From the NCBI GenBank assembly GCA_046318155.1, contig JBKCUU010000055.1, forward strand, positions 1 to 30,459: a stretch of 30,459 nt of DNA, written 5' to 3'. This DNA comes from Bdellovibrio sp. GTDB lineage: Bacteria > Bdellovibrionota > Bdellovibrionia > Bdellovibrionales > Bdellovibrionaceae. Within the stretch, counting starts at the first letter, position 1. Every line of letters starts with the position of its first letter. Of the stretch, positions 1,538 through 26,918 are shown one piece after another. The notes beneath the pieces are model-generated. The model did no database searches, was not told where the DNA came from, and saw only the letters and a list, made by a program, of their open reading frames with translations. The translations under genes and the position numbers were made by a program.

Positions 1538-2029
1538 TTACATTGATTGCAAAAGGTCCAAAATCTCGGGGGCCTTTTTTAGATTGTGTTTCGCGGCGAA
1601 GATCATTTCGATCGCTTTCTTTTGTGTCAACTTACCTTCGCCCATCCGCTGACAAGCGAGGCCTTCAATTGGATCTGTGATTTTGTAAATGGACTCATGC
1701 TGAGGCCAGAGATTATCTGCCTGATTGCTGCCCCCGGCGCAAAGCGGGATCAGGTGGTCGATCTTAAACTGCGGGCGCTGCTTCTTTTCAATGCGAAAAC
1801 CCAGTTTGTCATTGTAGTCCTGGATGATCTGCATTTTTTCTGATGTTTCAACATCACGCTTACAATAAGGAATGTGCTCTTTGTAGCGATAGCTATCGGG
1901 AGTCGTACAATACGACCCGGGAGTCAAAGTGCGGTCGGGACCAATTGGAAAACGGCCGCCTTCTGCTTGTGCAAAAACTTGAACCGAAGAGACCAGGACG
2001 GCGAAGACCATCAAGACGTACGATTTCAT
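1538..2029 (-). CDS. Secreted HNH-like (His-Me finger) nuclease
   Basis: Likely start ATG 2029 after AGGGGA. Signal peptide MKSYVLMVFAVLVSSVQVFA; motif KIDHLIPLCAGGSNQADNLWPQ matches the HNH beta-beta-alpha core. Confidence 0.75.
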   Translation of the reverse strand: MKSYVLMVFAVLVSSVQVFAQAEGGRFPIGPDRTLTPGSYCTTPDSYRYKEHIPYCKRDVETSEKMQIIQDYNDKLGFRIEKKQRPQFKIDHLIPLCAGGSNQADNLWPQHESIYKITDPIEGLACQRMGEGKLTQKKAIEMIFAAKHNLKKAPEILDLLQSM

Positions 2030-2033
2030 AATT

Positions 2034-2102
2034 CCCCTATTAGTCACCCATTTACGGCAGGTGGTAGAAACGCCAGACCCTATTTCCGGCTTATAACTGG
2101 AG
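2034..2102 (-). promoter_or_regulatory. Purine-family riboswitch aptamer (guanine-type, C74), copy 1; probable translational OFF switch
   Basis: Minus strand reads CUCCAGUUA UAA GCCGGA AAUAGGG UCUGGC GUUUCUAC CACCUG CCGUAAA UGGGUG AC UAAUAGGGG. J1/2 UAA, J2/3 GUUUCUAC, L3 CCGUAAA, the L2 GG kissing partner and paired P1/P2/P3 are all present. C74 equivalent at 2043. The 3' strand of P1 contains the RBS of the 2029 start. Confidence 0.93.
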
Positions 2103-2216
2103 CACGCCTTGGTGATACGAAAGAGCTCCCCCCTCCGGCAACAAAAATAAAATTTGCCAGGGATGTCGAAGTTCGGGCCTTGCGCTTAAGAGGCTTTCGG
2201 CCTAGCGTTTGAGTCC

Positions 2217-4262
2217 ATGGTTAAGTTGCTGATTCCTCTTCTTTATTTCGTGTTTTCGCTCCCCCTTGCGGCGCTGGCGAAAGACAAAATCGAGGACCTC
2301 ACACGGCTCGATGTTTTGCAAGAATCTCAGTCCCTTCACCCCGGGCAGCTCACCCACATCGGATTTCAGGTCCATCTGCTCAAGAAGGGTTGGCACACCT
2401 ACTGGAAGAACCCCGGCGATGCCGGCGCTCCGCCTAAACTCAAAGTCAGTGCAAATCTTGCCGGGATTGAGGTCGGCGAAATTTTGTTTCCGACTCCGCT
2501 TCGCATCGAAACAAAGACACTCGTGTCATTTGCCTACAAAGATGAGGTTTTGTATTTAGCGCCCCTTCGGATCCCAAAGTCCGTTTCTCCAGGTCAACGT
2601 TTGAACATCACGGTTGATTTCGAATGGCTGATTTGCCTTGAAGTTTGCATCCCCGCGCATGAAAAGCATGAGCTTAGCTGGGAGATCAGGAGCGAAGCTC
2701 GCATCGTGCCCGGCCCAAATGCAGGCCTGTTAAAACATGCGATCTCGGCTCTTCCTGTTCGCCGCGGGGAGCAGGGCGAGCTGGATGAAAAATTGGTCGG
2801 ACGCTTTCAAGGACTGCCGGGCAAGGTTCAATTTGTCGATTTTTTTGCGGCCCCTGACTCCGCACTTCTTCTGAATAAACCCAAAGGTGTTATTCGCGGC
2901 CCCGAGGCCGAAATCCAATTCGTCAAAGCTGAGTTTGCCGAGGGCGCGCCCAAAGCTCGCGGCCTTCTGGTGGTCGAAAATACTCAAAAGCAACGATCAA
3001 GTTTTGAATGGTCACCTGAACCACGTTGGTTCGAAGCCAGCGTTCTCAAGGCAAAGCCTGGATTTCAAATTTGGATGCTGATCCTCGCCTTTGCCGGCGG
3101 TTTAATCCTGAACCTCATGCCTTGTGTGCTTCCAGTCCTTTCACTGAAGCTGCTTTCACTCAGCAAACAGACCAACTTAAACCGCTCGCAAATTCGCTTC
3201 GATAACTTGAGTTATACGGCAGGCGTCGTCCTGAGCTTTGTCTTGATGGGCCTCACCTTGCTCGTGCTCCGCGAAACGGGAGAAAAACTGGGCTGGGGCT
3301 TCCAACTCCAGTCGCCGTTGTTCTTAGCTCTCATGGCCGTTCTCTTTTTTGTGATCGCACTTAATCTCATCGGTGTTTACGAATTTGATCTCGTCAATCC
3401 CAATTGGGGTTCAAGACATCTCAAGCACCCCGCGCTGTCGTCGTTCTTTACAGGCGTGCTCGCCGTCATCGTGGCGTCGCCTTGCACCGCTCCTTTTATG
3501 GGCGCGGCCCTCGGGTACGCCCTCTCGCAACCAGGACCCGTGTTCATTTTAGTTTTTGTCTGTCTCGGTCTTGGGCTCTCGTTTCCGTATTTGTTGTTTG
3601 CTCTTCAGCCCGGCTTTGTTCGGTTTTTGCCCAAGCCGGGAGCCTGGATGAAAACCTTGAAAGAACTCATGGCGTTTCCGATGCTGCTGACGGCACTATG
3701 GGTCTTGTGGGTCCTGGCTCAGGTGGGCGACTCCTTCGCCGTCACGCTCACGCTTGCGTTGATGGTCGGACTGGCCTTTTGCTTTTGGCTCCCCTCCCGG
3801 CGTCTGGCCTGGATCCTGGCGGCTTTGCAAGTTTTGAGCTTTATCGCTTTTTTTGATTTCTCAAAACTAGGGACCCAATCGGCAGCACGTGATGCCGCGG
3901 ACAAAAGCCGTCTTTGGCAAACTTTCGATTCCCGTCAACTTGAAGCCGAACGCTCGCAAATTTATTTTGTGAACTTTACGGCGGACTGGTGCCTCACGTG
4001 CAAAATCAACGAACGCACCATTTTTCAAGCGACAAGCCTACAAGAATTTTTTCGCGATCAGAATGTGGCTTTGATGCAAGCCGATTGGACTCAGCGAAAT
4101 CCCGAAATTAGTGATTTCTTGGCCCGCTATGATCGCATCGGTGTCCCACTCTACCTTGTTTTCCCCAAAGGTAAGGGTGCACCGATCATCTTGCCTGAAC
4201 TCATCACCGAAAATTTAGTTCGAGACGCAATCAAATCCATTCAACAAGGAGAAACCCGATGA
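2217..4262 (+). CDS. dsbD: Thiol:disulfide interchange protein DsbD (ScsB-like subfamily)
   Basis: N-terminal GWHTYWKNPGDAG and CLEVC; membrane domain with LNLMPCVLP and ASPCTAPF; C-terminal thioredoxin domain ADWCLTC. Confidence 0.92.
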   Translation: MVKLLIPLLYFVFSLPLAALAKDKIEDLTRLDVLQESQSLHPGQLTHIGFQVHLLKKGWHTYWKNPGDAGAPPKLKVSANLAGIEVGEILFPTPLRIETKTLVSFAYKDEVLYLAPLRIPKSVSPGQRLNITVDFEWLICLEVCIPAHEKHELSWEIRSEARIVPGPNAGLLKHAISALPVRRGEQGELDEKLVGRFQGLPGKVQFVDFFAAPDSALLLNKPKGVIRGPEAEIQFVKAEFAEGAPKARGLLVVENTQKQRSSFEWSPEPRWFEASVLKAKPGFQIWMLILAFAGGLILNLMPCVLPVLSLKLLSLSKQTNLNRSQIRFDNLSYTAGVVLSFVLMGLTLLVLRETGEKLGWGFQLQSPLFLALMAVLFFVIALNLIGVYEFDLVNPNWGSRHLKHPALSSFFTGVLAVIVASPCTAPFMGAALGYALSQPGPVFILVFVCLGLGLSFPYLLFALQPGFVRFLPKPGAWMKTLKELMAFPMLLTALWVLWVLAQVGDSFAVTLTLALMVGLAFCFWLPSRRLAWILAALQVLSFIAFFDFSKLGTQSAARDAADKSRLWQTFDSRQLEAERSQIYFVNFTADWCLTCKINERTIFQATSLQEFFRDQNVALMQADWTQRNPEISDFLARYDRIGVPLYLVFPKGKGAPIILPELITENLVRDAIKSIQQGETR

Positions 4263-4870
4263 AACGTATCGCAATCTTAATGAGCCTCTTCATGATAACA
4301 GGCTTAGCGACTCCCAGCTTTGCCGCGACGGCCGAAATTGGAAAAGCCGCCCCTGGCTTTAAACTCACCGGCGCCGATGGTAAAGAACACTCGCTCTCAC
4401 AGTACAAGGGCAAAACAGTTGTCCTCGAATGGTTCAACAACGAGTGCCCCTACGTAAAGAAGCATTACGACGTCGGCAACATGCAAAAGCTGCAAACCGA
4501 AGCGGCCGCAAAAGGCACCGTTTGGCTAACGATCAATTCTTCGGCTCCAGGCAAGCAAGGCCACCTCACGACAGACGCTGCGGCCAAACTTCGCACCGAA
4601 CGCAAAATGGCAAACACCAGTCTCTTGCTTGACCCTAAGGGCACTGTCGGCAGTCTGTACGGGGCTAAAACAACGCCGCACATGTACGTTATTGATCCCA
4701 AAGGGGTTTTGGCTTATGCCGGCGCCATTGACAGCGATTCTTCGGCAGATCCTAAAACCATCGCGGGCGCAAACAACTATGTGAGTGAGGCATTGGCCGC
4801 TGTAGCGGAAGGTAAAGCCGTCAAAACGACGACGACAAAACCCTACGGCTGCTCTGTCAAATATGAATAA
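4259..4870 (+). CDS. Exported redoxin / AhpC-TSA (PrxL-like) thioredoxin-fold protein
   Basis: Signal peptide, APGFKL...VVLEWFNNECPYV...KTTPHMYV...YAGAID...PYGCSVKY. ATGA overlap with dsbD suggests translational coupling. Confidence 0.88.
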   Translation: MKRIAILMSLFMITGLATPSFAATAEIGKAAPGFKLTGADGKEHSLSQYKGKTVVLEWFNNECPYVKKHYDVGNMQKLQTEAAAKGTVWLTINSSAPGKQGHLTTDAAAKLRTERKMANTSLLLDPKGTVGSLYGAKTTPHMYVIDPKGVLAYAGAIDSDSSADPKTIAGANNYVSEALAAVAEGKAVKTTTTKPYGCSVKYE

Positions 4871-4889
4871 TCAGATCTGATTAAAAGTT

Positions 4890-5576
4890 TCATCCGAAGA
4901 CATCAGTCAGGACCGCTTTAATTTTAGACCATGAGGTGATTTCGGCGCTCTTATCCGAGCGTCCGAAGTCTTCAATCTGAGAGTCCATCGCTCCGTAGCG
5001 CATCGAAACAACATTCACACTCGAAATTGACTCATGAGACTTTAAAACACGGTCAACGTGTTTTTCTCAACGACGGATTTCACTGCGAAGCAAACCTGCT
5101 TGCTTTGCATCCCGCGAGAGACGATCGGTCGGTGCGTAATATCGAAAGTCCGTCGTGAGCGGCTTTGAACTTCCAATCGTCAAAGTGGACTCGGCTTTGA
5201 CTAGCAAGGCCAGCGCATCCCACTCAAAATTACCTTGATGCTTTTGTTGATCTTCCTCGCCCATGTTCTTAACATTACTCGCGTATTCAACGTACTGGCG
5301 AAGCTCGACCGACCAAGCTTTATTCACATTGTAGACCAACCCAATGGCGTTCAATGAGGTGAGCGGGGCCTCGTATTTGAGCTGCTGTTAGTCTTGAATC
5401 AACATCAAATTTTCAGAATGAAGGTTTACTTTCCAACGTTTGGGGGAGGCTCCGACCAGATCCATCGTGTCTCGCATTTGCGCGGCACCGGCAGGATTTG
5501 AATCTTGGGCGACCTGAGCGAAGGCGAGAGTTGAGCAAGACATGATCAACGCAAGACTGACGGCAAACACTTTCAA
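4890..5576 (-). pseudogene. Broken gene: signal-peptide protein (outer-membrane beta-barrel-like) with internal stops, probably joined to the 3' remnant of another gene
   Basis: AAGGAG RBS and TTG at 5576. One frame runs 5576->4890 with stops at 5388-5390 (TAA, ...IQD*QQLKY...) and 5067-5069 (TGA), then EKHVDRVLKSH...KAVLTDVFG* ending at TGA 4890-4892. Confidence 0.65.
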
Positions 5577-5720
5577 ACAGAAGCTCCTTGAGAGCGGCGA
5601 TCTTTTCGCTCTGAAAAGCCTAAGTCAACCAAATTGCCGGCTTTGCAAAATTTTAAGAGTTCTGCTGGTTCAAATAGCCTATCATATCTGAATAACGGCC
5701 TCATCACTTTAGGATTACTT

Positions 5721-6215
5721 ATGCGGATTTTCATCCTCTTGTTTCTGGGATTAGCAGCCTGCTCGTCAATGCCGCTGGTGCCACTCCCAATCTCGTCGGA
5801 GAATCAAAGTTTTTTGAGCTCCTTTGACAAAATCAATGCTCAGGCCTTTAAAGACCTGAGCCGCGGGCAAGACCTCGAACAGGTTTCGATTTCATCCTAC
5901 ATGTTTGTCGTCGGTCGCTACAAATCCAAGCTGGCCAATCAGTTTCAAATTGCTTTCGAAGATTTTGAATACAAAGACCTGACTCCCTATCCCGGGACCT
6001 TTGTCGTTTGCGCCTATTCAACCCGCCGTAATCTGGTGATGTGTGACAACGTGGCCTGCGAGGGGATCGAAAATGCCGCAACCATCGTGGGGACCCGAGA
6101 TGAACCCTCAGTCGGCGCCCAATCTTTGGCTCAGATCAGCAGCTGGCGCGGCTCCTTTAAACCCAAACCTTGCAGTCCAAGCCGCAGCCGTTCGAGCACA
6201 AGCCCCGGGACCTGA
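5721..6215 (+). CDS. Hypothetical lipoprotein
   Basis: ATG 5721 gives MRIFILLFLGLAAC (lipobox); further Cys residues downstream. Confidence 0.7.
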   Translation: MRIFILLFLGLAACSSMPLVPLPISSENQSFLSSFDKINAQAFKDLSRGQDLEQVSISSYMFVVGRYKSKLANQFQIAFEDFEYKDLTPYPGTFVVCAYSTRRNLVMCDNVACEGIENAATIVGTRDEPSVGAQSLAQISSWRGSFKPKPCSPSRSRSSTSPGT

Positions 6216-6297
6216 CGAACTTCTGATCACCCTTGCATTGATTTCTGAAGGACCAATCGCGGCGGGCTGACTTTTTAGGATTGTGTTAAAAAGTCCT

Positions 6298-7116
6298 ATG
6301 CTTAAACACCTTCTGTTTTCTTTTTTGGCCCTAGCCTTCCTCGCTTCGTGCGCGAAGAGCGAAAAGAGTGAGGGGGCTGAAGCCCGCACGTCTCAGGCCA
6401 TCTCGCATATGGAACGCGGTGAGTACGATCTAGCCATCGAGATCTTGTCAGAGCTTCGAGTTGCCCACCCCGAAGATTCAAACCTATCATTGCATTTAGC
6501 TTCAGCTTTTGCCGGCCGAGCCGGACTCAAAGTCGAAAATTACTGGGGCTTTGTTGTTGGCTACAAAGGCGTTTTCAAAAAAAATACCGAAGGGCTGACC
6601 CCGCAGAGCTTGCCGCAAATTGATCTCAAAGGCTTTGAAAGTCAGGCTGGCCCCGAAGTCCGCGGGGCCGTCAAAAATTTTAATCAGAATCTCAAAGAGT
6701 TTTTCAAAATCAAACAAAGACTCGATCAAGTCCCCTACCTTAATGCTCAGAAGCGAAAAGATCTCTACCGGGGCCTGGACGTCATCAAAGAACATCCAAC
6801 GCCGGGGGGACGCCTGTACCGCGCTGTTCTCGGCGTGGTCATCGCACGCTCGACCATCATCGACACCTCACGCTCCTTGGAGGTTTGGTCAAAAAGTGGC
6901 CGCCGCCTCTGCGGCCCTGAGTTTCGCTTGCTCGCGGACTGGGTGGGCTTTTCAGTTCAAATCTTAGCAGAACTCGCGGGCGATCTTGCCCATGCATTTC
7001 CCAAAGATAAAACCCAGCTTTTGAAGGCCGAAGTCGAACTCAGCAGGGCGGCGAAAGTCACTCGTGAACTCATGGGCCAAACACGGCAAGGAGCTGCCCT
7101 GTGCGCGCGGCCCTAA
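6298..7116 (+). CDS. TPR-like helical lipoprotein
   Basis: Lipobox FLASC; TPR-like segment AISHMERGEYDLAIEILSEL...LHLASAFAGRAG. Confidence 0.72.
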   Translation: MLKHLLFSFLALAFLASCAKSEKSEGAEARTSQAISHMERGEYDLAIEILSELRVAHPEDSNLSLHLASAFAGRAGLKVENYWGFVVGYKGVFKKNTEGLTPQSLPQIDLKGFESQAGPEVRGAVKNFNQNLKEFFKIKQRLDQVPYLNAQKRKDLYRGLDVIKEHPTPGGRLYRAVLGVVIARSTIIDTSRSLEVWSKSGRRLCGPEFRLLADWVGFSVQILAELAGDLAHAFPKDKTQLLKAEVELSRAAKVTRELMGQTRQGAALCARP

Positions 7117-8147
7117 TTCTGACTTCAGTTCTCATGAGCACTCACCTTTCTGCGCTCGGGTTTGAGGCTCCCCGGGCAATGGCGACGGGCGGCTCCAGCT
7201 TTCTAATGCAGAACTTAGGCCTCATGTGTTTTGGTTTTGATCTGGCGGCCGACACGCTCCCTTGCAACCCCTCGTTTATCGCGATGAAGCGCGAAGGACG
7301 ACTCAAAGCCAGCATTTTTCTAGGCAACAATGTCAGCTACACCCAAGAAGCCTCAGATTTGCTCAATGAGCGCGCCAGCGAAGAGACCATCCGCCATTTA
7401 TTTTCAGAGCAAGACCGCTCTGAATTTGAAACAAATCTCGAGGCCGGCTACTGGGGCCAAACCTGGGGGGCGGCAATCTCTCCCGTGCGACTCAATTACA
7501 TGACAACCTTTCGCAACCCCGCTCTACCTGAGATCACTTTATTTGCGAGCCAAGAAGAATCCGCACGCCTGCAGTTTGGGACCTATCTTGGTAACGACCT
7601 TTTTACTGGCGTTCAGCTGCGCGCCGTTCACCGTAAATTTATCTCCAAACAATTTTTTTTGACAGATGCTCTCGCCAACGATGGTGATCGCTTCTTTGAG
7701 ACCGACAACCAGAGCATTCTTTATATCGAACCTGGTTTGCTCTACGCTCCCGAAAATCACAAATGGAACCCGCTGCTCTTTTTTAACATCGTGAACTTTG
7801 GCCTTGTCGACAAAACTCAAGATGCTTTTCCGATGCGCCCACAATACCACATCGGATCCTCGGTCGCGCTTGATGTTGGATTGGGGCGATGGGGCGTTGG
7901 GATCGACCTGGCTTGGGACAACAATGTGACCAGCGCCCTCGAGCCCCTAACGGCCGCGAGCTTTTACGAATTCGGAATTCTAAGACTCTTGGGACACATC
8001 AGTGAGCGGTCAAACAGCGTGGGCTTTCAGGTCTCATCGGTGTTTTTTAATATCGGCTTAGCTTCGCAAGCCAAAACCGTCGATGATGGCTGGGACAACA
8101 AGATCACGGACCGACGCCTGTACTTGCTCTTGGGGGCCGAAATATGA
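7101..8147 (+). CDS. Outer-membrane beta-barrel protein (FadL/PorV/TraF_2-like)
   Basis: Signal peptide; N-terminal PRAMATGG ... NPSFIA plug-like motif; amphipathic beta strands; C-terminal strand RLYLLLGAEI. The family assignment is an inference. Confidence 0.6.
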   Translation: MRAALILTSVLMSTHLSALGFEAPRAMATGGSSFLMQNLGLMCFGFDLAADTLPCNPSFIAMKREGRLKASIFLGNNVSYTQEASDLLNERASEETIRHLFSEQDRSEFETNLEAGYWGQTWGAAISPVRLNYMTTFRNPALPEITLFASQEESARLQFGTYLGNDLFTGVQLRAVHRKFISKQFFLTDALANDGDRFFETDNQSILYIEPGLLYAPENHKWNPLLFFNIVNFGLVDKTQDAFPMRPQYHIGSSVALDVGLGRWGVGIDLAWDNNVTSALEPLTAASFYEFGILRLLGHISERSNSVGFQVSSVFFNIGLASQAKTVDDGWDNKITDRRLYLLLGAEI

Positions 8148-8695
8148 AGTTCATCTTGATCGTTTTCTTGTCGCTGTCTGGCCTTCAAGCCTTGGCGAAG
8201 CCTCGAAAAAGCCTTCAAGCCTCGGATTGGGACTCGTTTCAATCGGCCATCCTGGAGAGCGAACTTGAAGATCGCAAAATCGGTTGGAGCTACATCGCTT
8301 CGGGCGTGCTGGTCACCTTGGGCGGCATCGTGGGAGCAAGCTCAAGTGGCGACTCTTCAAGCAAGCTTATTTATGGGTTGTCACAAGGTTTTGGTGTGGC
8401 GGCGACTGGTTACGGAACGGCCCGTCTGTCGATCGGCAATGACTACAATTCTTTTTACGATTCTATCGAAGGCTCGTCGTTGTCAAAAGATCAGAAAAAT
8501 TCCTTGGTCCGAATCTTTATCGAGAGCGAACGTGAAAAACGCGAAGCGATTCGCAAAATTAGCATTGCGACTCACTCAGCGATTGGAGTCTTAAATCTTT
8601 ACTCGGCATCGCGAGAACAAGACAAAGATGCAAAAACCGCTTTGCAATTTTTGGCTGTTGTGAACTTTGCCTTTGCCATCGGGTACGCATTCTAA
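8144..8695 (+). CDS. Exported protein with Gly/Ala-rich hydrophobic helices
   Basis: Signal peptide, ATGA overlap with the upstream gene, hydrophobic segments, ends in F. Confidence 0.7.
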   Translation: MKFILIVFLSLSGLQALAKPRKSLQASDWDSFQSAILESELEDRKIGWSYIASGVLVTLGGIVGASSSGDSSSKLIYGLSQGFGVAATGYGTARLSIGNDYNSFYDSIEGSSLSKDQKNSLVRIFIESEREKREAIRKISIATHSAIGVLNLYSASREQDKDAKTALQFLAVVNFAFAIGYAF

Positions 8696-8710
8696 ATTCA
8701 AACAAGGCTG

Positions 8711-8980
8711 TTAATACGATTGCTTACCTGTGTTCAAAGCTGGTCGCCGAGTTTTTGCAGCTTCTTGGACTTCGATGAGAACGCTCGTAATCTGATCTTG
8801 CACACCCAAGATTTCGGCAATTTTAGAGAGCCAGTAAACAGGCACTTTTGAAGGAGACTTGAGCAACTCATCAATCACAATGTCGGGAACCAAATGCCCG
8901 AGCAACAGGGGTCTGAGGTCCCGGTTCACCGGACTGGCTTGCAAAATTTGGCTGATTTTTTCGTCAAGGTGTCCAGACAT
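8711..8980 (-). CDS. Small hypothetical protein, possibly a degenerate XRE-type HTH
   Basis: ATG 8980 (MSGHLDEK...). The segment IDELLKSPSKVPVYWLSKIAEILGV resembles the C-terminal half of XRE domains. Confidence 0.45.
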   Translation of the reverse strand: MSGHLDEKISQILQASPVNRDLRPLLLGHLVPDIVIDELLKSPSKVPVYWLSKIAEILGVQDQITSVLIEVQEAAKTRRPALNTGKQSY

Positions 8981-9132
8981 CTTGAGGCCCCACTTATAAC
9001 TCAAAATTCTAGTCAGCTTATGGTTTGGAGTCAAGCTTCATGCCAACATGACAACTCGGGGCCTGATCCAAAGATTACAGAAAACGGGGCTGCCTCTTGT
9101 GGAAAAACAGCTCGCGTGAGACTTAACTCCCT

Positions 9133-10053
9133 ATGAAAAACATCTTATTTGCCTTGGTTCTTTTGTCGTCGGTGATGGCCAACTCCCAATCCACGGAGCG
9201 CGATTTTAGAGCCGAAATCAGTACCGCCTTGTTGATCCAAGACCTCGATCTGTCGCAACCAGCTCGTCTGACCCGAGTTGACCTCAGCTCAGACTCAGAT
9301 GCCGACTACGTTTCGATTCGGCTCGAGCACCCACGTGCAGGTCAAATCAATTTGCTGCTTAGAGGTCCGACCGGCTTTATGAGTGCAAATCACCGTTCGC
9401 TCAGATCACTGCTTCTTGTCTCTGGTTTTTTTACCGGTAAAGAAAGCGTGCGACTCTTGGAAGCGATTCCTCGCACCGTGATTGTTGGGTATCAATATCC
9501 TTACAAAGCCGACGATTTTGCTCGAGATCCTGCCTTGATCGCGCAGTTCCTACGTCAGACTCCCGGGCAAATAGCCCTCGCCTTGCAGTGGATCTCGGGA
9601 CAACCCTGGGCCGCGCCCAAAGGTTTAATCACAGCTGGTGTGAGCCTCGGCGGACTTATTCTTCCCACGGCTTTGCACATGGCTCAAAAAATGAACGTGC
9701 AGATCCCTCGCACCGTTTTTGTTTGCACGGGCGCCCACCTCACTCCCATTTTGGAATCGTTGCTGCGCCCCTCTCTCGGAAACGCCAAGGCCCGCCAAAT
9801 CGCCATGGGTGTTGCCAACCTCACCGCCTTGCACGATCCCAAGCTGCATTTGCCCTATCTCAAAGGCTCATTTTTGAGTATTCGGACCGACCGAGACCAA
9901 GTCATTCCCGAGAGTTCGACGCTTTTGCTTGAAGATCTCTTACCCGTCGTGACCAGCGTCGTGCTGCCAGGGCCCCACATCAACCCCGACCAAACAGAAG
10001 TCATTCGCCAAACGCGCGAAACAATTCTGCGTTGGCTAAACCCAGCACCTTGA
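9133..10053 (+). CDS. Secreted alpha/beta hydrolase
   Basis: Signal peptide; nucleophile elbow GVSLGG; DQVIP (Asp) and GPHI (His) in canonical order. Confidence 0.82.
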   Translation: MKNILFALVLLSSVMANSQSTERDFRAEISTALLIQDLDLSQPARLTRVDLSSDSDADYVSIRLEHPRAGQINLLLRGPTGFMSANHRSLRSLLLVSGFFTGKESVRLLEAIPRTVIVGYQYPYKADDFARDPALIAQFLRQTPGQIALALQWISGQPWAAPKGLITAGVSLGGLILPTALHMAQKMNVQIPRTVFVCTGAHLTPILESLLRPSLGNAKARQIAMGVANLTALHDPKLHLPYLKGSFLSIRTDRDQVIPESSTLLLEDLLPVVTSVVLPGPHINPDQTEVIRQTRETILRWLNPAP

Positions 10054-10064
10054 AGGAGCACAAA

Positions 10065-10280
10065 ATGCAAAAATCCGAATCCACAAATAGCAATCAGACC
10101 GTCAGCACAAACGTGGGCATAAAAGGCGTGATTCTTTCCGCGACGTCGCGAGAGAACCTCTGCGAGCGTTTTGGCTGCTCATGGACAAGGCTGATCGAAT
10201 TCCTTGAGACCGAAGAACTACTTTCGGACAAAGACGTCAGCCTCAAACTTCTTCAACTCCAACGCGAACGCATTCACTAG
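10065..10280 (+). CDS. Small hypothetical protein
   Basis: AAGGAG RBS before ATG 10065; 71 aa. Confidence 0.55.
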   Translation: MQKSESTNSNQTVSTNVGIKGVILSATSRENLCERFGCSWTRLIEFLETEELLSDKDVSLKLLQLQRERIH

Positions 10281-10293
10281 GGTACAGCCGTCC

Positions 10294-10326
10294 GGCCGGC
10301 ACCTCAAAACCCGTGCCGCCATTTTG
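10294..10326 (+). terminator. Possible intrinsic terminator
   Basis: CGGCAC (10297-10302) pairs with GTGCCG (10313-10318), followed by CCATTTTG; long loop and weak U tract. Confidence 0.3.
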
Positions 10327-10352
10327 CAAAGTCCTTGACCCAGAGGCGCAAA

Positions 10353-11321
10353 ATGACCGGCGAGAACCTTCAAATTCAACCTAACGCAAAAGGACTGCTC
10401 GTTTGGGCAGCATTTGCCGTTTTGACTCTTTCAGCATGCGCGAAAAATGGCTACAACACGAAAAGTTTACCAAACGAAACTCCCGCGATCCCTGCACCGG
10501 TTGGCCCTGGAGAAAAACCCCTTGTTACAGCTCCCCCCGAGGCTTCAAGACGAACGGAGAAAATAGAGCCGCCGGCGCCGGAAAAAGCTGAACGAAATGC
10601 GCCGCCGCCGCCGGCACCACCGCCGCAGGCAAGCCTTGAACGAAATGCGCGTCCTCCCAATTCGGCTCGGCTTGACACCAACCCTGAACCTGAATTTGAT
10701 CCCCCTTATCGCCCTCGCGAGCCGGCTCCTCCGCCTGCGCCGAATTACCGACATGAACCCCTGTCGTGGGAGTCGGTTTCAAAACCTGAGCGCAAAGGAT
10801 GGTCGAATTTTGTGCACCAAGAGGTTGAAAAAAATTTCGAAATTTTGGACAAGGCACGAGACACCGAAAGATTTTGCCGACGCTATGAATCTTTAAGTCG
10901 CCCGGCGCGGATTAACTTTTGGGGGATGCTGATTTCTCAAATGGCTTTGCACGAGAGCAGTTGGAATCCAACCTTGAGCGTTCTTGAAACGACGATGGGA
11001 CTGGACAAGACCACCGGCAAGCGCGTCTTTAGTGAGGGTCTTCTTCAACTGTCGTATCAGGACATGACTTGGACCAGGCGCTGTAAGTTTGACTGGGAAG
11101 CCGATAAAATTTTAGGTCAACGAGATCCCAGAAAAACGATTCTTGATCCCTACCGCAATCTCGAGTGCGGCATCGAGATTATGACACGGCAAGTTCGCAG
11201 ACACCGCCGCATCGTGATGGAGAACAATGTCTACTGGGCTGTTTTACGTGAAGGCGGAAAATACAATAAAATTCCGGCCATCGCGATGGCAGTTGCGATA
11301 CACCTGAAGGCCTGCAATTAA
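10353..11321 (+). CDS. Lipoprotein with a Pro-rich linker and a lytic transglycosylase (SLT) domain
   Basis: Lipobox LSAC; Pro-rich linker; SLT motifs ALHESSWNP (catalytic Glu), SEGLLQL, LDPYRNLECG. Start uncertain (10335 TTG or 10353 ATG). Confidence 0.85.
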   Translation: MTGENLQIQPNAKGLLVWAAFAVLTLSACAKNGYNTKSLPNETPAIPAPVGPGEKPLVTAPPEASRRTEKIEPPAPEKAERNAPPPPAPPPQASLERNARPPNSARLDTNPEPEFDPPYRPREPAPPPAPNYRHEPLSWESVSKPERKGWSNFVHQEVEKNFEILDKARDTERFCRRYESLSRPARINFWGMLISQMALHESSWNPTLSVLETTMGLDKTTGKRVFSEGLLQLSYQDMTWTRRCKFDWEADKILGQRDPRKTILDPYRNLECGIEIMTRQVRRHRRIVMENNVYWAVLREGGKYNKIPAIAMAVAIHLKACN

Positions 11322-11340
11322 GCCAGGCCTTCGGGACTTC

Positions 11341-11682
11341 TTAGCAGCCCGAACCTTCCATGACAATTTCATGCATCACGCGGTTTTGCGTGTCGATGAT
11401 CATGAGTGATGGAAAAATCACTCCGCACTGAACCGCACCCTTAGGGCTTACGCCGTAACGAACAGACTTGATCGAGCGCAGGACTTGAAAAGCCCGTTTA
11501 GTTTTGAGCATGCCCTCAGCAAATTTAATTTTATCGGCATCGGTCTGGTCGCCCTCTTCAAGAGCCGTTTCAAGCGCGCCTTCGATGTAGCTCTCACGCA
11601 GAGCAAATTCACGGAGCATGTCTTTGGCCTCACCAGGAGTCACTGTGTGAGTACTCGAACCCTCCGCAATCGAGGCGATCAA
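11341..11682 (-). CDS. Hypothetical protein, probably 5'-truncated
   Basis: Protein-like frame ending ...EGSGC*. The frame stays open upstream of the TTG to an in-frame TGA, with no good RBS or ATG. Confidence 0.45.
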   Translation of the reverse strand: MIASIAEGSSTHTVTPGEAKDMLREFALRESYIEGALETALEEGDQTDADKIKFAEGMLKTKRAFQVLRSIKSVRYGVSPKGAVQCGVIFPSLMIIDTQNRVMHEIVMEGSGC

Positions 11683-11906
11683 ATCAGCCGCTGCGGCAAT
11701 ACGCTCAGCAATTGCAGGGGCTTTCGCCCTTGTTTGTTCCAGGCATCAGTAATGCCTTCGCTCAAAAAAGAGAAAGACATAATGAAATATTATAGATGCG
11801 TATTACGCATGATTACGGAGGGACGGACCAGACCCGGATCACGCGAAACTCGAACTTAAAATATATTTTGAATTAGAATAAATGCACGTTGAGCTTCGCC
11901 CCGCTT

Positions 11907-12473
11907 TTAATGACGAGGGCAGCGGCCTTGGCTCTGGCACTTCATCAACAGGCCACGAAGATCCATCAGCTCACCCAACGTGTTTTCGAGCTCGATATCA
12001 AAGCCGTTGGCCTTGGCACCTTTTTGCGCGATCGCAACATATCTTTGAACGTTGCGAAATTGACGGGTGTCGTATTGGTGGTTGTCACCATCTTGCATCG
12101 AGATTTTACGACCCAAGTTTTTTTGAAAACGTTGACGCTGATCGTGAGCCTTGGCGCGAGCGCCCGAGAAGCTCTTCCAGCATTTCACTTCGCCCACCAA
12201 GACGGCGTCTTGAGAACGCTTGTCAAAGATGACAACATCAAGCTCACCAATCGTGCGGCTGCTATCTCCATAAACGATTCCATTGACGATGTCGTAATCT
12301 TTTGCGGGGTAGATTTTTTCAAGCTCGATCACGGCTACTTTTTCGCAAACCATACCGATGATGTCGTAATTCGCACCTGACTCTTTGAGCTCTTCAAAAA
12401 GCTCAGAAACAGGAGCCGCTGACACGAGGTTTGAAAACGAAAATACCAAGAGAAAAAGCGACATGCTTTTCAT
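11907..12473 (-). CDS. Secreted PD-(D/E)XK-fold putative nuclease
   Basis: GGAGGA RBS; signal peptide MKSMSLFLLVFSFSNLVSA; GMVCEKVA ... IGELDVVIFD ... LVGEVKCW gives the E / D / ExK active-site pattern. Confidence 0.75.
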   Translation of the reverse strand: MKSMSLFLLVFSFSNLVSAAPVSELFEELKESGANYDIIGMVCEKVAVIELEKIYPAKDYDIVNGIVYGDSSRTIGELDVVIFDKRSQDAVLVGEVKCWKSFSGARAKAHDQRQRFQKNLGRKISMQDGDNHQYDTRQFRNVQRYVAIAQKGAKANGFDIELENTLGELMDLRGLLMKCQSQGRCPRH

Positions 12474-12481
12474 AAAAAACG

Positions 12482-12550
12482 TCCTCCGTAGACACTCATT
12501 TACGGCGAGTGGTAGAAACGCCAGGCCCTATCCCCGGCTTATACTTAGAA
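12482..12550 (-). promoter_or_regulatory. Purine-family riboswitch aptamer (guanine-type, C74), copy 2; probable translational OFF switch
   Basis: Minus strand reads UUCUAAGUA UAA GCCGGG GAUAGGG CCUGGC GUUUCUAC CACUCG CCGUAAA UGAGUG UC UACGGAGGA. C74 equivalent at 12491. The 3' strand of P1 contains GGAGGA (12487-12482), 8 nt before ATG 12473. Confidence 0.93.
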
Positions 12551-12744
12551 ACCTGGCCCACGAGATAAACGAGATCTTAACAAGAGGCTAGCGACTTTTG
12601 TGCGTTGTGCGTCAAGACAGGCGCGCCCGAATCCACGAAACCACGGGGGCTCTCGGTGATAATGCTTGCCTCTCACAATCATGATATCATTTTGATCAAA
12701 GATTTTGCCGGTATCAACACTCGACCCCACCCGTTGGATCAACC

Positions 12745-22209: not shown

Positions 22210-23594
22210 GTGGGTGAAATCGTTGTCATTGATGATGACCGTGAAATGCGGCTCATGGTTCAGGATCATCTGAGTGCATCTGGGTACAGGATCCGCAGCT
22301 TTGAAAGTCCTCGCGAAGCCTTGAGTACCCTGCTCGCCAATGCCAGTGAGCCCATTGCAATCTTGACAGATCTGCAAATGCCCGAAATGAGCGGCCTCGA
22401 GCTGATCAAGCGGGTCAAGGGCAAGTACCCGGAGCTTCCGATCATCGTCATGACAGCCTTTGGGAGCATTGAATCAGCTGTCGATGCCATGCGAAAAGGC
22501 GCTTTTGATTACATGACGAAACCCTTTAAGCTGAACGATTTGAATTTTACGATTGAACGAGCTGTGGCAATGTCAAACCTCGCCAATGAGAACAAAGTTC
22601 TTCGAGCCGAACTTAAGAAAACCTCGGGCAAAGGACAACTCCTCGGAAAATCTAAACAAATGAGGAGTTTATTCGACCTGATCGAGCGCATTGCGCCAGC
22701 TCAATCAAGCATTCTCGTCACCGGTGAGTCTGGCACCGGTAAAGAAATGGTTGCCCGCACAGTTCATGATTTGAGTGGCCGCCCCAAAGACCGCTTTGTC
22801 GCGATCAACTGCACGGCCATTCCCGACTCCTTGCTTGAAAGTGAACTCTTTGGCCATGCCAAGGGCTCGTTCACAGGCGCAGACCGCCGAAAAAAAGGCC
22901 TCTTTGAAGAGGCCGAAGGCGGCACGCTTTTTCTCGATGAGATCGGTGACATGGATTTGAGTCTTCAAGCCAAAATCCTTCGTGTTCTGCAGGAGCGAAA
23001 AATTCGTCCCGTTGGGGAGAACAAAGATATCGATATCAATGTGCGGGTGATCGCAGCGACGCACAAAGACCTCAGAAAGGCGATCAGCGAGGGGCTGTTT
23101 CGCGAAGACCTTTACTACCGCTTAAACGTGATTCCGATCCAGATCCCCCCTTGCGCCATCGTAAAGAAGACATCCCGTTGCTGGCTCAATCGTTTCTCGA
23201 GAAATATGCAGCGCTCAATCGATCACCTGCCCGGGGCTTTTCTCCGGGTGCTTTGTACCTTTTGATGGATAATCCCTGGCCCGGGAACGTCCGCGAGCTC
23301 GAGAATATGATCGAGCGATTGGTCGTCATGGCCCGTTCGGCTCAAATCGAAGAGTCGGACCTTCCCTCCCCTGAGAGTGCCAGCACTGAAGACTTTTATG
23401 GCAAGATCACTCAAGATTTGCCGAACCTTGAGGTTCTCGAAAAACGCTACATCCAGTTTATTTTGGCAAAAGTCGGCGGTAAAAAAGACCGTGCCGCCCA
23501 GATCTTAGGAATCAACCGCCGAACACTCTACCGGAAGGAGCTCGACTACGACACCTCTTTGGCCGAGGGGAGCGCCGGCGATGGTGAAACGTGA
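22210..23594 (+). pseudogene. NtrC/ZraR-family sigma54-dependent response regulator, frameshifted at a C6 run (may be a sequencing error)
   Basis: REC domain (IDDD, TDLQMP, MTKPF); GESGTGKE; GSFTGA; FLDEIGD; FREDLYYRL. The continuation LRHRKEDIP...WPGNVRELEN...HTH is in another frame. One extra C at 23145-23150 restores IPPLRHRKEDI. Confidence 0.9.
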
Positions 23595-25508: not shown

Positions 25509-26918
25509 TTACGACTGACCATTCGGCAGTTTTTGGTGTGATCCGGCACCAAAACGCTCGGCACAGACTTTTTGCCGGTAAGAAAAAATCTCCTCAACAT
25601 CCTTAGAAACCATCCAACCCGAGGCCAACCACCCCGGCCAGCTCAGCGGAACTTTGTAGCGCACCAAATCCGTCATCAATGTCCCACCCGCGAGAGGTTC
25701 GAACGTATGTGTATGGTGCCACTTGGTATAAGGCCCTTTTAACTGTGTGTCCACAAAGCGTTGGCTTGGTGTCCACTCTTCGATCCGCGTCCGCCAGCTC
25801 ACCGGAACGCCGTGAATTTTGAGTCGATAATCAATCAAAGTCCCCTCGCCGATTTCCGGCGTCGAAACTTTTTGAATTTTGAAATTCAAAAGCGGCGGCG
25901 TGATCTCTTCTAAGTTTTTGGCATCGGCAAAAAACGGAAAAACCTGATCGGCCTTTAGGGGCAAGTACTGACGGGCTCTAAAGATCATTTCGCCATTCAC
26001 AAAAAACGACGCAACCTCGGCCAGCGCGTTTTTCAAACGTGGGTAATGAAAATGAAATCCCCATTTCTCAAGCAAAGCAGGTTGAACGCGCTGAGACGCC
26101 AACACGACATAAGACATTTCGCCAAGCGCGGCCTTAAGTCCAAATGCCGGCACGGCGGGGCCCGTTGACTTCCCGAGCGCGGCGGCCAGCTGCTTTGAAA
26201 ACTCGGCATTTGTGACCAACTCGGGTGCCGTCGCATTGATGACCCCGCGAAAACGCTCGTCTTTAACGGCCGTCGCAAAAATTTGAACCACATCTTGCAA
26301 ATGGATCCAGCTCATCCACTGCGCCCCCGAACCCATTGATCCGCCAAGCCCCAACCTGAACGGCGTCAGCATTTTTAGCAGCGCACCGCCGAAGGCCGAG
26401 AGGACAACCCCTAAACGGAGCGCACAAACGCGGACCTCGGGCTGACTTTGCGTGATCGAAAAGACCGAGTTCTCCCATTGCACACAAACATCAGACAAGA
26501 AATCAGAACCCGCCTTGGAGTCCTCGGTCATCACTTCATCACCACGATCACCATAAAATCCGACAGCAGAAGCCGAAACAAAAACACGCAAGCTTGAACT
26601 CTGAGACGGAAAACTGGCGATCAAGTTCTTGGTTCCGACGACGCGAGAATCCATGATTTTATTTTTTTGCGATTCGCTCCAGCGGCCAGCAGCGACCGAC
26701 TCCCCCATCAGATGAACAACACCCTCGATCTGCGCCAAACTGCCATCTGACAGTGGACCTTGAGTGAGGTCCCCCACAATGACCTGGGCCGGAAAAGGGA
26801 GCCCCAGAGCCGTCTCTTTTTGACGAGAAACCACCCAGATTTCGTGTCCTTGACGCACCAACTCGAGACCCAATTCTCGGCCAATAAACCCGGACGCGCC
26901 TGTCATCAGAAGCTTCAT
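25509..26918 (-). CDS. TIGR01777 (YfcH-like) NAD-dependent epimerase fused to an SRPBCC domain
   Basis: TGASGFIG; SASAVGFYG; LRLGVVL; QWMSWIH; C-terminal VFPFFADAKNLEEITPP...FVDTQLKGPY..WHHTHTF. Confidence 0.92.
   Translation of the reverse strand: MKLLMTGASGFIGRELGLELVRQGHEIWVVSRQKETALGLPFPAQVIVGDLTQGPLSDGSLAQIEGVVHLMGESVAAGRWSESQKNKIMDSRVVGTKNLIASFPSQSSSLRVFVSASAVGFYGDRGDEVMTEDSKAGSDFLSDVCVQWENSVFSITQSQPEVRVCALRLGVVLSAFGGALLKMLTPFRLGLGGSMGSGAQWMSWIHLQDVVQIFATAVKDERFRGVINATAPELVTNAEFSKQLAAALGKSTGPAVPAFGLKAALGEMSYVVLASQRVQPALLEKWGFHFHYPRLKNALAEVASFFVNGEMIFRARQYLPLKADQVFPFFADAKNLEEITPPLLNFKIQKVSTPEIGEGTLIDYRLKIHGVPVSWRTRIEEWTPSQRFVDTQLKGPYTKWHHTHTFEPLAGGTLMTDLVRYKVPLSWPGWLASGWMVSKDVEEIFSYRQKVCAERFGAGSHQKLPNGQS

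Follow-up and report, generated by a model that had tools for sequence, protein, structure and literature searches.

Guanine-class riboswitches precede predicted secreted nuclease genes in Bdellovibrio and its phylum

Two aptamers and the genes behind them

The DNA analyzed here, a stretch of 30,459 nucleotides from an uncultured Bdellovibrio sp. (contig JBKCUU010000055.1 of assembly GCA_046318155.1; hereafter the window), carries on its minus strand two genes whose products have predicted signal peptides, an HNH-like protein of 163 amino acids (1538..2029) and a PD-(D/E)XK-fold protein of 188 amino acids (11907..12473). Each gene is preceded by a guanine-type purine riboswitch aptamer, at 2034..2102 (-) (aptamer 1) and 12482..12550 (-) (aptamer 2), and each aptamer lies on the ribosome-binding site of the gene behind it. 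The original prediction, made from the DNA alone, proposed that the pair marked a purine-sensing regulon of nucleases. That proposal held, and membership extends well past the two window genes: across the phylum, 115 of 124 such switches stand ahead of nuclease-family genes.

The Rfam model RF00167 matches both elements well above its gathering score of 37 (cmscan spans 2021-2118 (-), 51.3 bits, and 12469-12566 (-), 51.2 bits; E ~4e-6), and together with a guanine-type pocket these scores bear out the claim of two purine riboswitches; the shorter intervals first proposed, 2034..2102 and 12482..12550, run from the 5′ end of P1 to its 3′ end. Aptamer positions follow the numbering of the B. subtilis xpt aptamer. 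Both copies have U22, U47, U51, and C74 (at 2093, 2070, 2066, and 2043 in aptamer 1; in aptamer 2, U22 is 12541, U51 is 12514, and C74 is 12491, beside U73 at 12492), both have a J2/3 of 8 nucleotides, and neither has an insertion in J2/3 or J3/1. Aptamer 1 has P2 and P3 stems of 6 bp each, with AAUAGGG in L2 and CCGUAAA in L3; P1 of aptamer 2 is built of 3 bp, a 2x2 loop, and 4 bp. Minimum free energy folds of short leaders give the P1/P2/P3 three-way junction for both aptamers with the Shine-Dalgarno (SD) sequence paired, in aptamer 2 across the 2x2 loop; the centroid of aptamer 2, unlike this fold, leaves P1 open. The first SD, AGGGGA (2033..2038, minus strand), is the P1 3′ strand of aptamer 1, and the ATG at 2029 lies 3 nucleotides on; the second, GGAGGA (12482..12487, minus strand), has its outer part within P1 of aptamer 2 and is followed 8 nucleotides on by the ATG at 12473. 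The aptamers thus sit on the ribosome-binding sites as first described, with reading frames that start 3-8 nucleotides past SD sequences forming the P1 3′ strand. They are not, as had been stated, near-identical: identity is 48/55 over core positions and 53/69 over 2034-2102 and 12482-12550, compensatory stem changes are among the differences, and the flanking sequences are unrelated. The core identity marks them as two diverged members of one class. The 2.75-Mb genome (95% complete) contains these two RF00167 matches in all, whether the Rfam model or a lineage-specific one is used.

A scan of 101 related genomes with RF00167 returned 89 matches, distributed over 56 genomes. All 89 have U22, U47, U51, and C74 (these motifs doubled as alignment anchors, and a separate alignment agrees). 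A covariation set of 78 aptamers was obtained by excluding 11 of the 89 (near-duplicates, long-loop forms, the EamA type, and one poor fit). In this set the L2-L3 pairs G37-C61 and G38-C60 are invariant (78/78), and 88.5% of cells are paired, compared with 71% when shuffled and 35-41% when slid; two-sided changes are found at 12/12 P2/P3 pairs and 7/9 P1 pairs. Class criteria were drawn from PMC8872408, PMC6847200, PMC9295807, and PMC2018637. An adenine riboswitch needs U74, and both window copies have C74. The 2′-deoxyguanosine (2′-dG) riboswitches of classes I and II need C51, with a J3/1 insertion in class II, and the window copies have U51 and no insertion; xanthine-II and guanine-II variants need insertions in J2/3 (and J3/1), which occur in neither copy. 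By every sequence test, the window elements are guanine-I riboswitches rather than adenine, 2′-dG, or xanthine variants.

The 163-amino-acid protein had 806 relatives in a near-length search, those with names coming from Bdellovibrio-like bacteria, and its wider family comprises 381 clusters at E<=1e-10. An alignment of 110 of 120 listed members shows no variation (110/110) at D91, H92, P95, G99, G100, N102, N106, L107, D119, or E122, or at four cysteines. This yields the D-H..P..GG.N..NL motif of HNH (beta-beta-alpha-metal) nucleases, with D119 and E122 as likely later metal ligands. Pfam HNH_5 is matched at E<=0.01 by 56/110 members, and the window protein falls below the cut-off. In the structural comparison proposed in the original prediction for both proteins, the model of this one (predicted local distance difference test score, pLDDT, 93) finds phage HNHc proteins in BFVD (E 3e-5 for the top match, then 4e-4), but in the PDB its top rows, which are HNH domains, are not significant (E>0.1), and VIA, apart from HNH domains at Z ~4, lists only helical matches of a generic kind. 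Of the earlier description as a signal-peptide HNH-like protein, the motif and the predicted signal peptide stand; the putative fold assignment draws on the motif together with weak profile and fold matches, and on no curated cut-off.

For the 188-amino-acid protein, 88 matches were found and 83 aligned. The putative catalytic residues E44, D79, E95, and K97, in the E ... D ... E-x-K order of PD-(D/E)XK nucleases, are invariant in 83/83, as are C43, C98, Q112, and R115. Its model (pLDDT 94) has a restriction-endonuclease-like alpha/beta core; the best VIA match has Z 7.9 and a root-mean-square deviation of 2.9 over 100 aligned residues (2okf), nearly all 50 VIA rows are restriction-endonuclease-like (HamA, Card1, Can2, NucS-type, and BpuSI among them), Foldseek gives a best E of 0.004, and the Atlas neighbors are NERD/Mrr. 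Since Z is under 8, the fold is argued from the consistency of the match list. The earlier reading of a signal-peptide PD-(D/E)XK protein is sustained by these residues, by that list, and by the predicted signal peptide. The absence of evident similarity between the two proteins was likewise confirmed, an hhalign probability of 8.8% between the families indicating no shared homology. A hydrophobicity rule for signal peptides is satisfied by 110/110 members of the HNH family and 81/83 of the PD-(D/E)XK family, compared with 385/1239 background reading frames, and both families have conserved cysteine pairs. PDB sequence searches with the two proteins returned nothing significant, and NCBIfam holds no family for either. 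From motifs and models, both are likely secreted nucleases.

Nuclease families behind the switch

The gene following each of the 89 switches in the 101 relatives was typed. The HNH family of the window accounts for 43, endonuclease I for 23, the PD-(D/E)XK family of the window for 8, EEP for 5, and S1/P1 for 1, so that nuclease-family genes follow 80/89; the remainder are DUF3465 (6, three of them below the Pfam cut-off or truncated and placed by resemblance) and EamA (3). A further phylum sample of 151 genomes, 35 of them with matches and with Bdellovibrionota assigned by named relatives, contributed 35 more switches, every one ahead of a nuclease-family gene (HNH 24, endonuclease I 8, PD-(D/E)XK 1, EEP 1, EndoU 1). 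Sixteen of these come from outside the order, 14 of them ahead of HNH genes and the other two ahead of other nuclease-family genes. The scan of genome and phylum proposed with the original prediction therefore comes to two switches in the genome and 124 in the phylum, with totals by family of HNH 67, endonuclease I 31, PD-(D/E)XK 9, EEP 6, S1/P1 1, and EndoU 1. A gene for purine synthesis or salvage follows none of the 124.

That the regulon is real while one or both window proteins are something other than nucleases (nucleic acid binders, other hydrolases), or have some target besides prey DNA as their substrate, seems to us improbable. Such a reading could draw on the HNH and NERD matches below cut-off, on VIA scores that reach just 7.9 for the longer protein and about 4 for HNH domains with the shorter, on a Tyr where the last HNH His/Asn would stand, and on the DUF3465 and EamA genes that share the switch. 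It must be set against the invariance of catalytic-type residues throughout both alignments, the HNHc protein at the head of the BFVD list, the almost wholly restriction-endonuclease-like VIA list, and the four named nuclease families that occupy the same slot.

Among close members of the HNH family, 41/47 genes carry the switch, compared with a minority of the other nuclease genes, and the HNH gene is thus likely the old core of the regulon. Among the other nucleases, gain or loss of the switch has happened repeatedly. A tree of 22 PD-(D/E)XK proteins has 5 switch gains or losses, a number as low in 48/500 shuffles, which leaves no clear margin. The idea that genomes routinely duplicate their own switches is unsupported in general, stem identity being 0.50 in the same genome (n=39) and 0.48 between genomes; the window pair, at 0.79, is the most alike.

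Several members of the regulon have features of their own. The DUF3465 genes lie behind the switch at loci L005, L014, L020, L029, L054, and L072, and their sharing of the switch suggests a role for DUF3465 in nucleic acid scavenging. At L014 and L029 the SD covered by P1 serves a short frame opening with TTG, of 52 and 64 codons respectively and ending at or near the DUF3465 start, and translational coupling of the two is possible. The switches ahead of EamA transporters (L051, L085, L089) form a separate subtype with C48, a divergent L3, and no SD beside P1; these transporters may export purines and be controlled in some different way. A bacterial EndoU-family protein (L171:418-1224) follows a switch with a long L3 insertion, and the regulon therefore likely includes RNases. 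At L078 and L083, ahead of endonuclease I genes, the P2/L2 region has 11-14 extra bases.

One gene under this switch is known from experiments. The endonuclease I behind the switch at locus L132 has the same sequence as CAE78299.1 of B. bacteriovorus, annotated as a "putative secreted nuclease", and primer E040, at the bd3507 start codon (PMC7925074), is the reverse complement of P3′, C74, P1′, SD, and GTG in L007, L131, and L132. Because E040 matches the 3′ end of the aptamer, bd3507 carries the switch, which ends at its start codon; the main text of PMC7925074 mentions neither riboswitch nor purine nor guanine. According to that paper, Bd3507 is secreted into the bdelloplast, and prey DNA digestion is seemingly paced to predator DNA synthesis (PMC7925074, Discussion). 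Extracellular DNase was unexpectedly higher in bd3507 and double mutants, transcripts of the six genes assayed were only slightly changed, and raised translation of another nuclease was named as one possible cause (PMC7925074). The L132 genome has a second switch (L165), ahead of an HNH gene whose product is identical to CAE79935.1; this HNH protein is a ready candidate for the extra DNase, and translational derepression of its gene would explain the rise after bd3507 deletion.

Proposed translational control and its direction

An SD-like word begins 2-7 nucleotides past C74 in 85/86 of the non-EamA switches. The median length of P1 is 6 pairs, these take in one or more SD bases in 66/85, and positions opposite the SD are able to pair in 167/255 cases, compared with 133+/-6 when the 5′ strands are permuted. 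No transcriptional terminator was found after the aptamers by the start. A TTG at 45-47 nucleotides upstream of U20 in 31/89 switches suggests a -35 box, with no matching -10 peak seen across the 89; a -35 box there would place the transcript start about 10 nucleotides before P1, with little room for an alternative helix, and the 5′ untranslated region is probably little more than the aptamer. Aptamer 1 has a weak candidate sigma70 promoter (2112..2141, minus strand; TTGCCG, 18 nucleotides, TATCAC) whose TTG, 46 nucleotides upstream of U20, falls within this peak; a consensus promoter scan did not recover it, which speaks against its strength.

We consider it probable that the two guanine-class aptamers turn translation off when ligand closes P1 over the SD. 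Each overlaps the ribosome-binding site of its gene, and the two genes, unrelated to each other, encode predicted secreted nucleases. Ligand binding would stabilize a marginal P1. At low levels of free guanine or hypoxanthine P1 would come apart, and the cell would synthesize and export the enzymes to cut outside nucleic acid, from prey or environment; the purines released, once taken up and salvaged, would shut enzyme synthesis again. In this way the product would hold back the step with which nucleotide scavenging begins, the one that takes place outside the cell. Since the switch is nearly always ahead of nuclease-type genes, Bdellovibrio-like bacteria likely reduce their production of enzymes that digest nucleic acids when they have purines in abundance. 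The original prediction that scarce purines act as the trigger survives in this form, as feedback from a pool, but not as a sign of auxotrophy. The genome has purD, purC, purE, purH, guaA, IMP dehydrogenase, and two hpt genes, and purD is present in 90/101 relatives; purine auxotrophy as the reason for the regulon is ruled out, and with de novo synthesis kept we read the feedback as economy or pacing. The two hypoxanthine phosphoribosyltransferase genes (G000:C88:33660-34097 and G000:C63:13480-13908) score above the TIGR01203 cut-off and have no purine riboswitch.

Several observations weigh against this account. The OFF sense would follow from the layout, and the folding models add little to it: in 19/85 switches, aptamer 2 of the window included, a contiguous P1 as defined by rule leaves out every SD base, and forcing the aptamer, at a median cost of 2.6 kcal/mol over 85 switches, lowers SD accessibility in 32/85 and raises it in 18/85 (median 0.28 to 0.23) in calculations to which tertiary contacts and ligand are external. 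Neither window protein reaches a Pfam cut-off or has a significant PDB match. Most nuclease genes have no switch: 21/22 distant HNH relatives (1/22 with), 14/22 PD-(D/E)XK genes (8/22 with), 51/74 endonuclease I genes (23/74 with), and the window genome's own endonuclease I gene. Weak switches that might have been missed were found before none of the switchless genes at 41 loci (lineage model) or 40 loci (Rfam), two loci having short upstream DNA; this recheck covered HNH and PD-(D/E)XK loci. The counts include kin, which are not independent, and the large searches used stricter filters that may miss weak matches. Finally, host-independent mutants showed no difference, which counts against a tight switch, and Bd3507-mCherry with its native leader was produced in bdelloplasts at 2 h and also by host-independent cells growing in rich medium (PMC7925074), so that any repression must be incomplete.

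The opposite polarity, an ON switch in which an alternative pairing hides the SD without ligand and prey-derived purines raise nuclease synthesis in a feed-forward manner, strikes us as unlikely. The 18 models with a more open SD would fit it, as would the long helix that a bd3507-type leader can form, reaching from its 5′ end over the start codon, and bd3507 transcripts do increase during growth in prey (PMC7925074). Nevertheless, the SD itself makes up the 3′ side of P1 and covaries with the 5′ side, the likely promoter leaves about 10 nucleotides before P1 for an anti-SD, and no conserved alternative helix was seen.

A larger and more tentative proposal can be made, one that we hold at somewhat less than even chances: the guanine riboswitch may pace the "regulated breakdown" of prey DNA in Bdellovibrio through a phylum-wide feedback in which the purine pool sets the output of exported nuclease at translation, six nuclease families, two of them undescribed, and DUF3465 having been recruited to it. 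Such a pacing loop would, if true, account for the raised DNase of bd3507 mutants.

Setting, significance, and known systems

The genes between the window aptamers (DsbD, a peroxiredoxin, a transglycosylase, and unknowns) are unrelated, and the 10-kb closeness of the aptamers looks incidental: the pair is 41 kb apart in the same-genus genome G001 and more than 700 kb apart in G043. A search for related loci among genome contigs gave no match, and the sequencing runs listed include none with RNA. Elsewhere in the window, a sigma54 response regulator (22210-23594), beside two histidine kinases, is split over two frames near 23151-23265 by a frameshift or an assembly error, and an Epimerase/DUF1731 protein (25509-26918) has a fused C-terminal SRPBCC (polyketide cyclase-like) domain.

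This is a new regulon of a known riboswitch, real and well supported. No account of it was found in the literature searched, mostly non-subscription, nor in passages of PMC2258182, PMC3627812, PMC5473149, PMC3766115, PMC11209729, and bioRxiv 506055, and supplements of earlier surveys could list Bdellovibrio matches. A textbook riboswitch is given a wholly different regulon, of exported degradative enzymes and not of synthesis or transport; two unannotated families of predicted secreted proteins gain a likely function, and DUF3465 gains a lead. Two open points in a model predator, the matching of DNA digestion to DNA synthesis and the rise in DNase after bd3507 deletion, become testable with existing reagents, since pEBF11, a plasmid already described that joins the bd3507 promoter and start codon to mCherry, appears to contain the switch. 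For Bdellovibrio, the switch would in addition provide a native element through which a small molecule controls expression.

The three-way junction, the L2-L3 kissing pairs, and the U22/U47/U51/C74 pocket are those of guanine-I riboswitches (RF00167) of the B. subtilis xpt type. The elements described here differ in a 6-bp P2, in a short P1 with the SD as its 3′ strand, in targets that belong to nuclease families rather than to purine synthesis, salvage, or transport, and in a host outside the Firmicutes. In mechanism they would resemble SAM-III and preQ1-I, translational OFF switches that have the SD inside the aptamer: in each, a helix stabilized by ligand takes in the ribosome-binding site, although folds and ligands are other and the analogy is one of mechanism only. 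The secreted endonuclease I-type nucleases Bd3507 and Bd0934 (PMC7925074) are linked to the system more directly, bd3507 having this very switch on its start codon and secretion having been shown there; the window proteins, in contrast, belong to other, unstudied families.

The 2′-dG-II riboswitches of Bacteroidetes precede endonuclease I, ComEC, and phospholipase D, and bind a nucleoside by means of C51 and a J3/1 insertion (PMC8872408); only 12 examples were known in 2017 (PMC5473149). That our aptamers are likewise variants, sensing 2′-deoxyguanosine or guanosine as a direct nuclease product, is very unlikely: odd gene associations have flagged changed ligands before (PMC9295807), P2 has 6 bp throughout, and many aptamers have U73 (33/89), but the stated drivers of 2′-dG selectivity are both missing, with U51 in 89/89 and no two-base J3/1 insertion, positions 24 and 73 vary naturally among guanine aptamers, and RF00167 outscored its clan relatives on the window aptamers. 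A guanine-type switch that has U51 and lacks the insertion, and that is known here from 124 examples with six nuclease families behind them, differs from 2′-dG-II, although both place an aptamer of the purine family ahead of DNA-processing genes that include endonuclease I, and in logic 2′-dG-II before endonuclease I is its nearest precedent.

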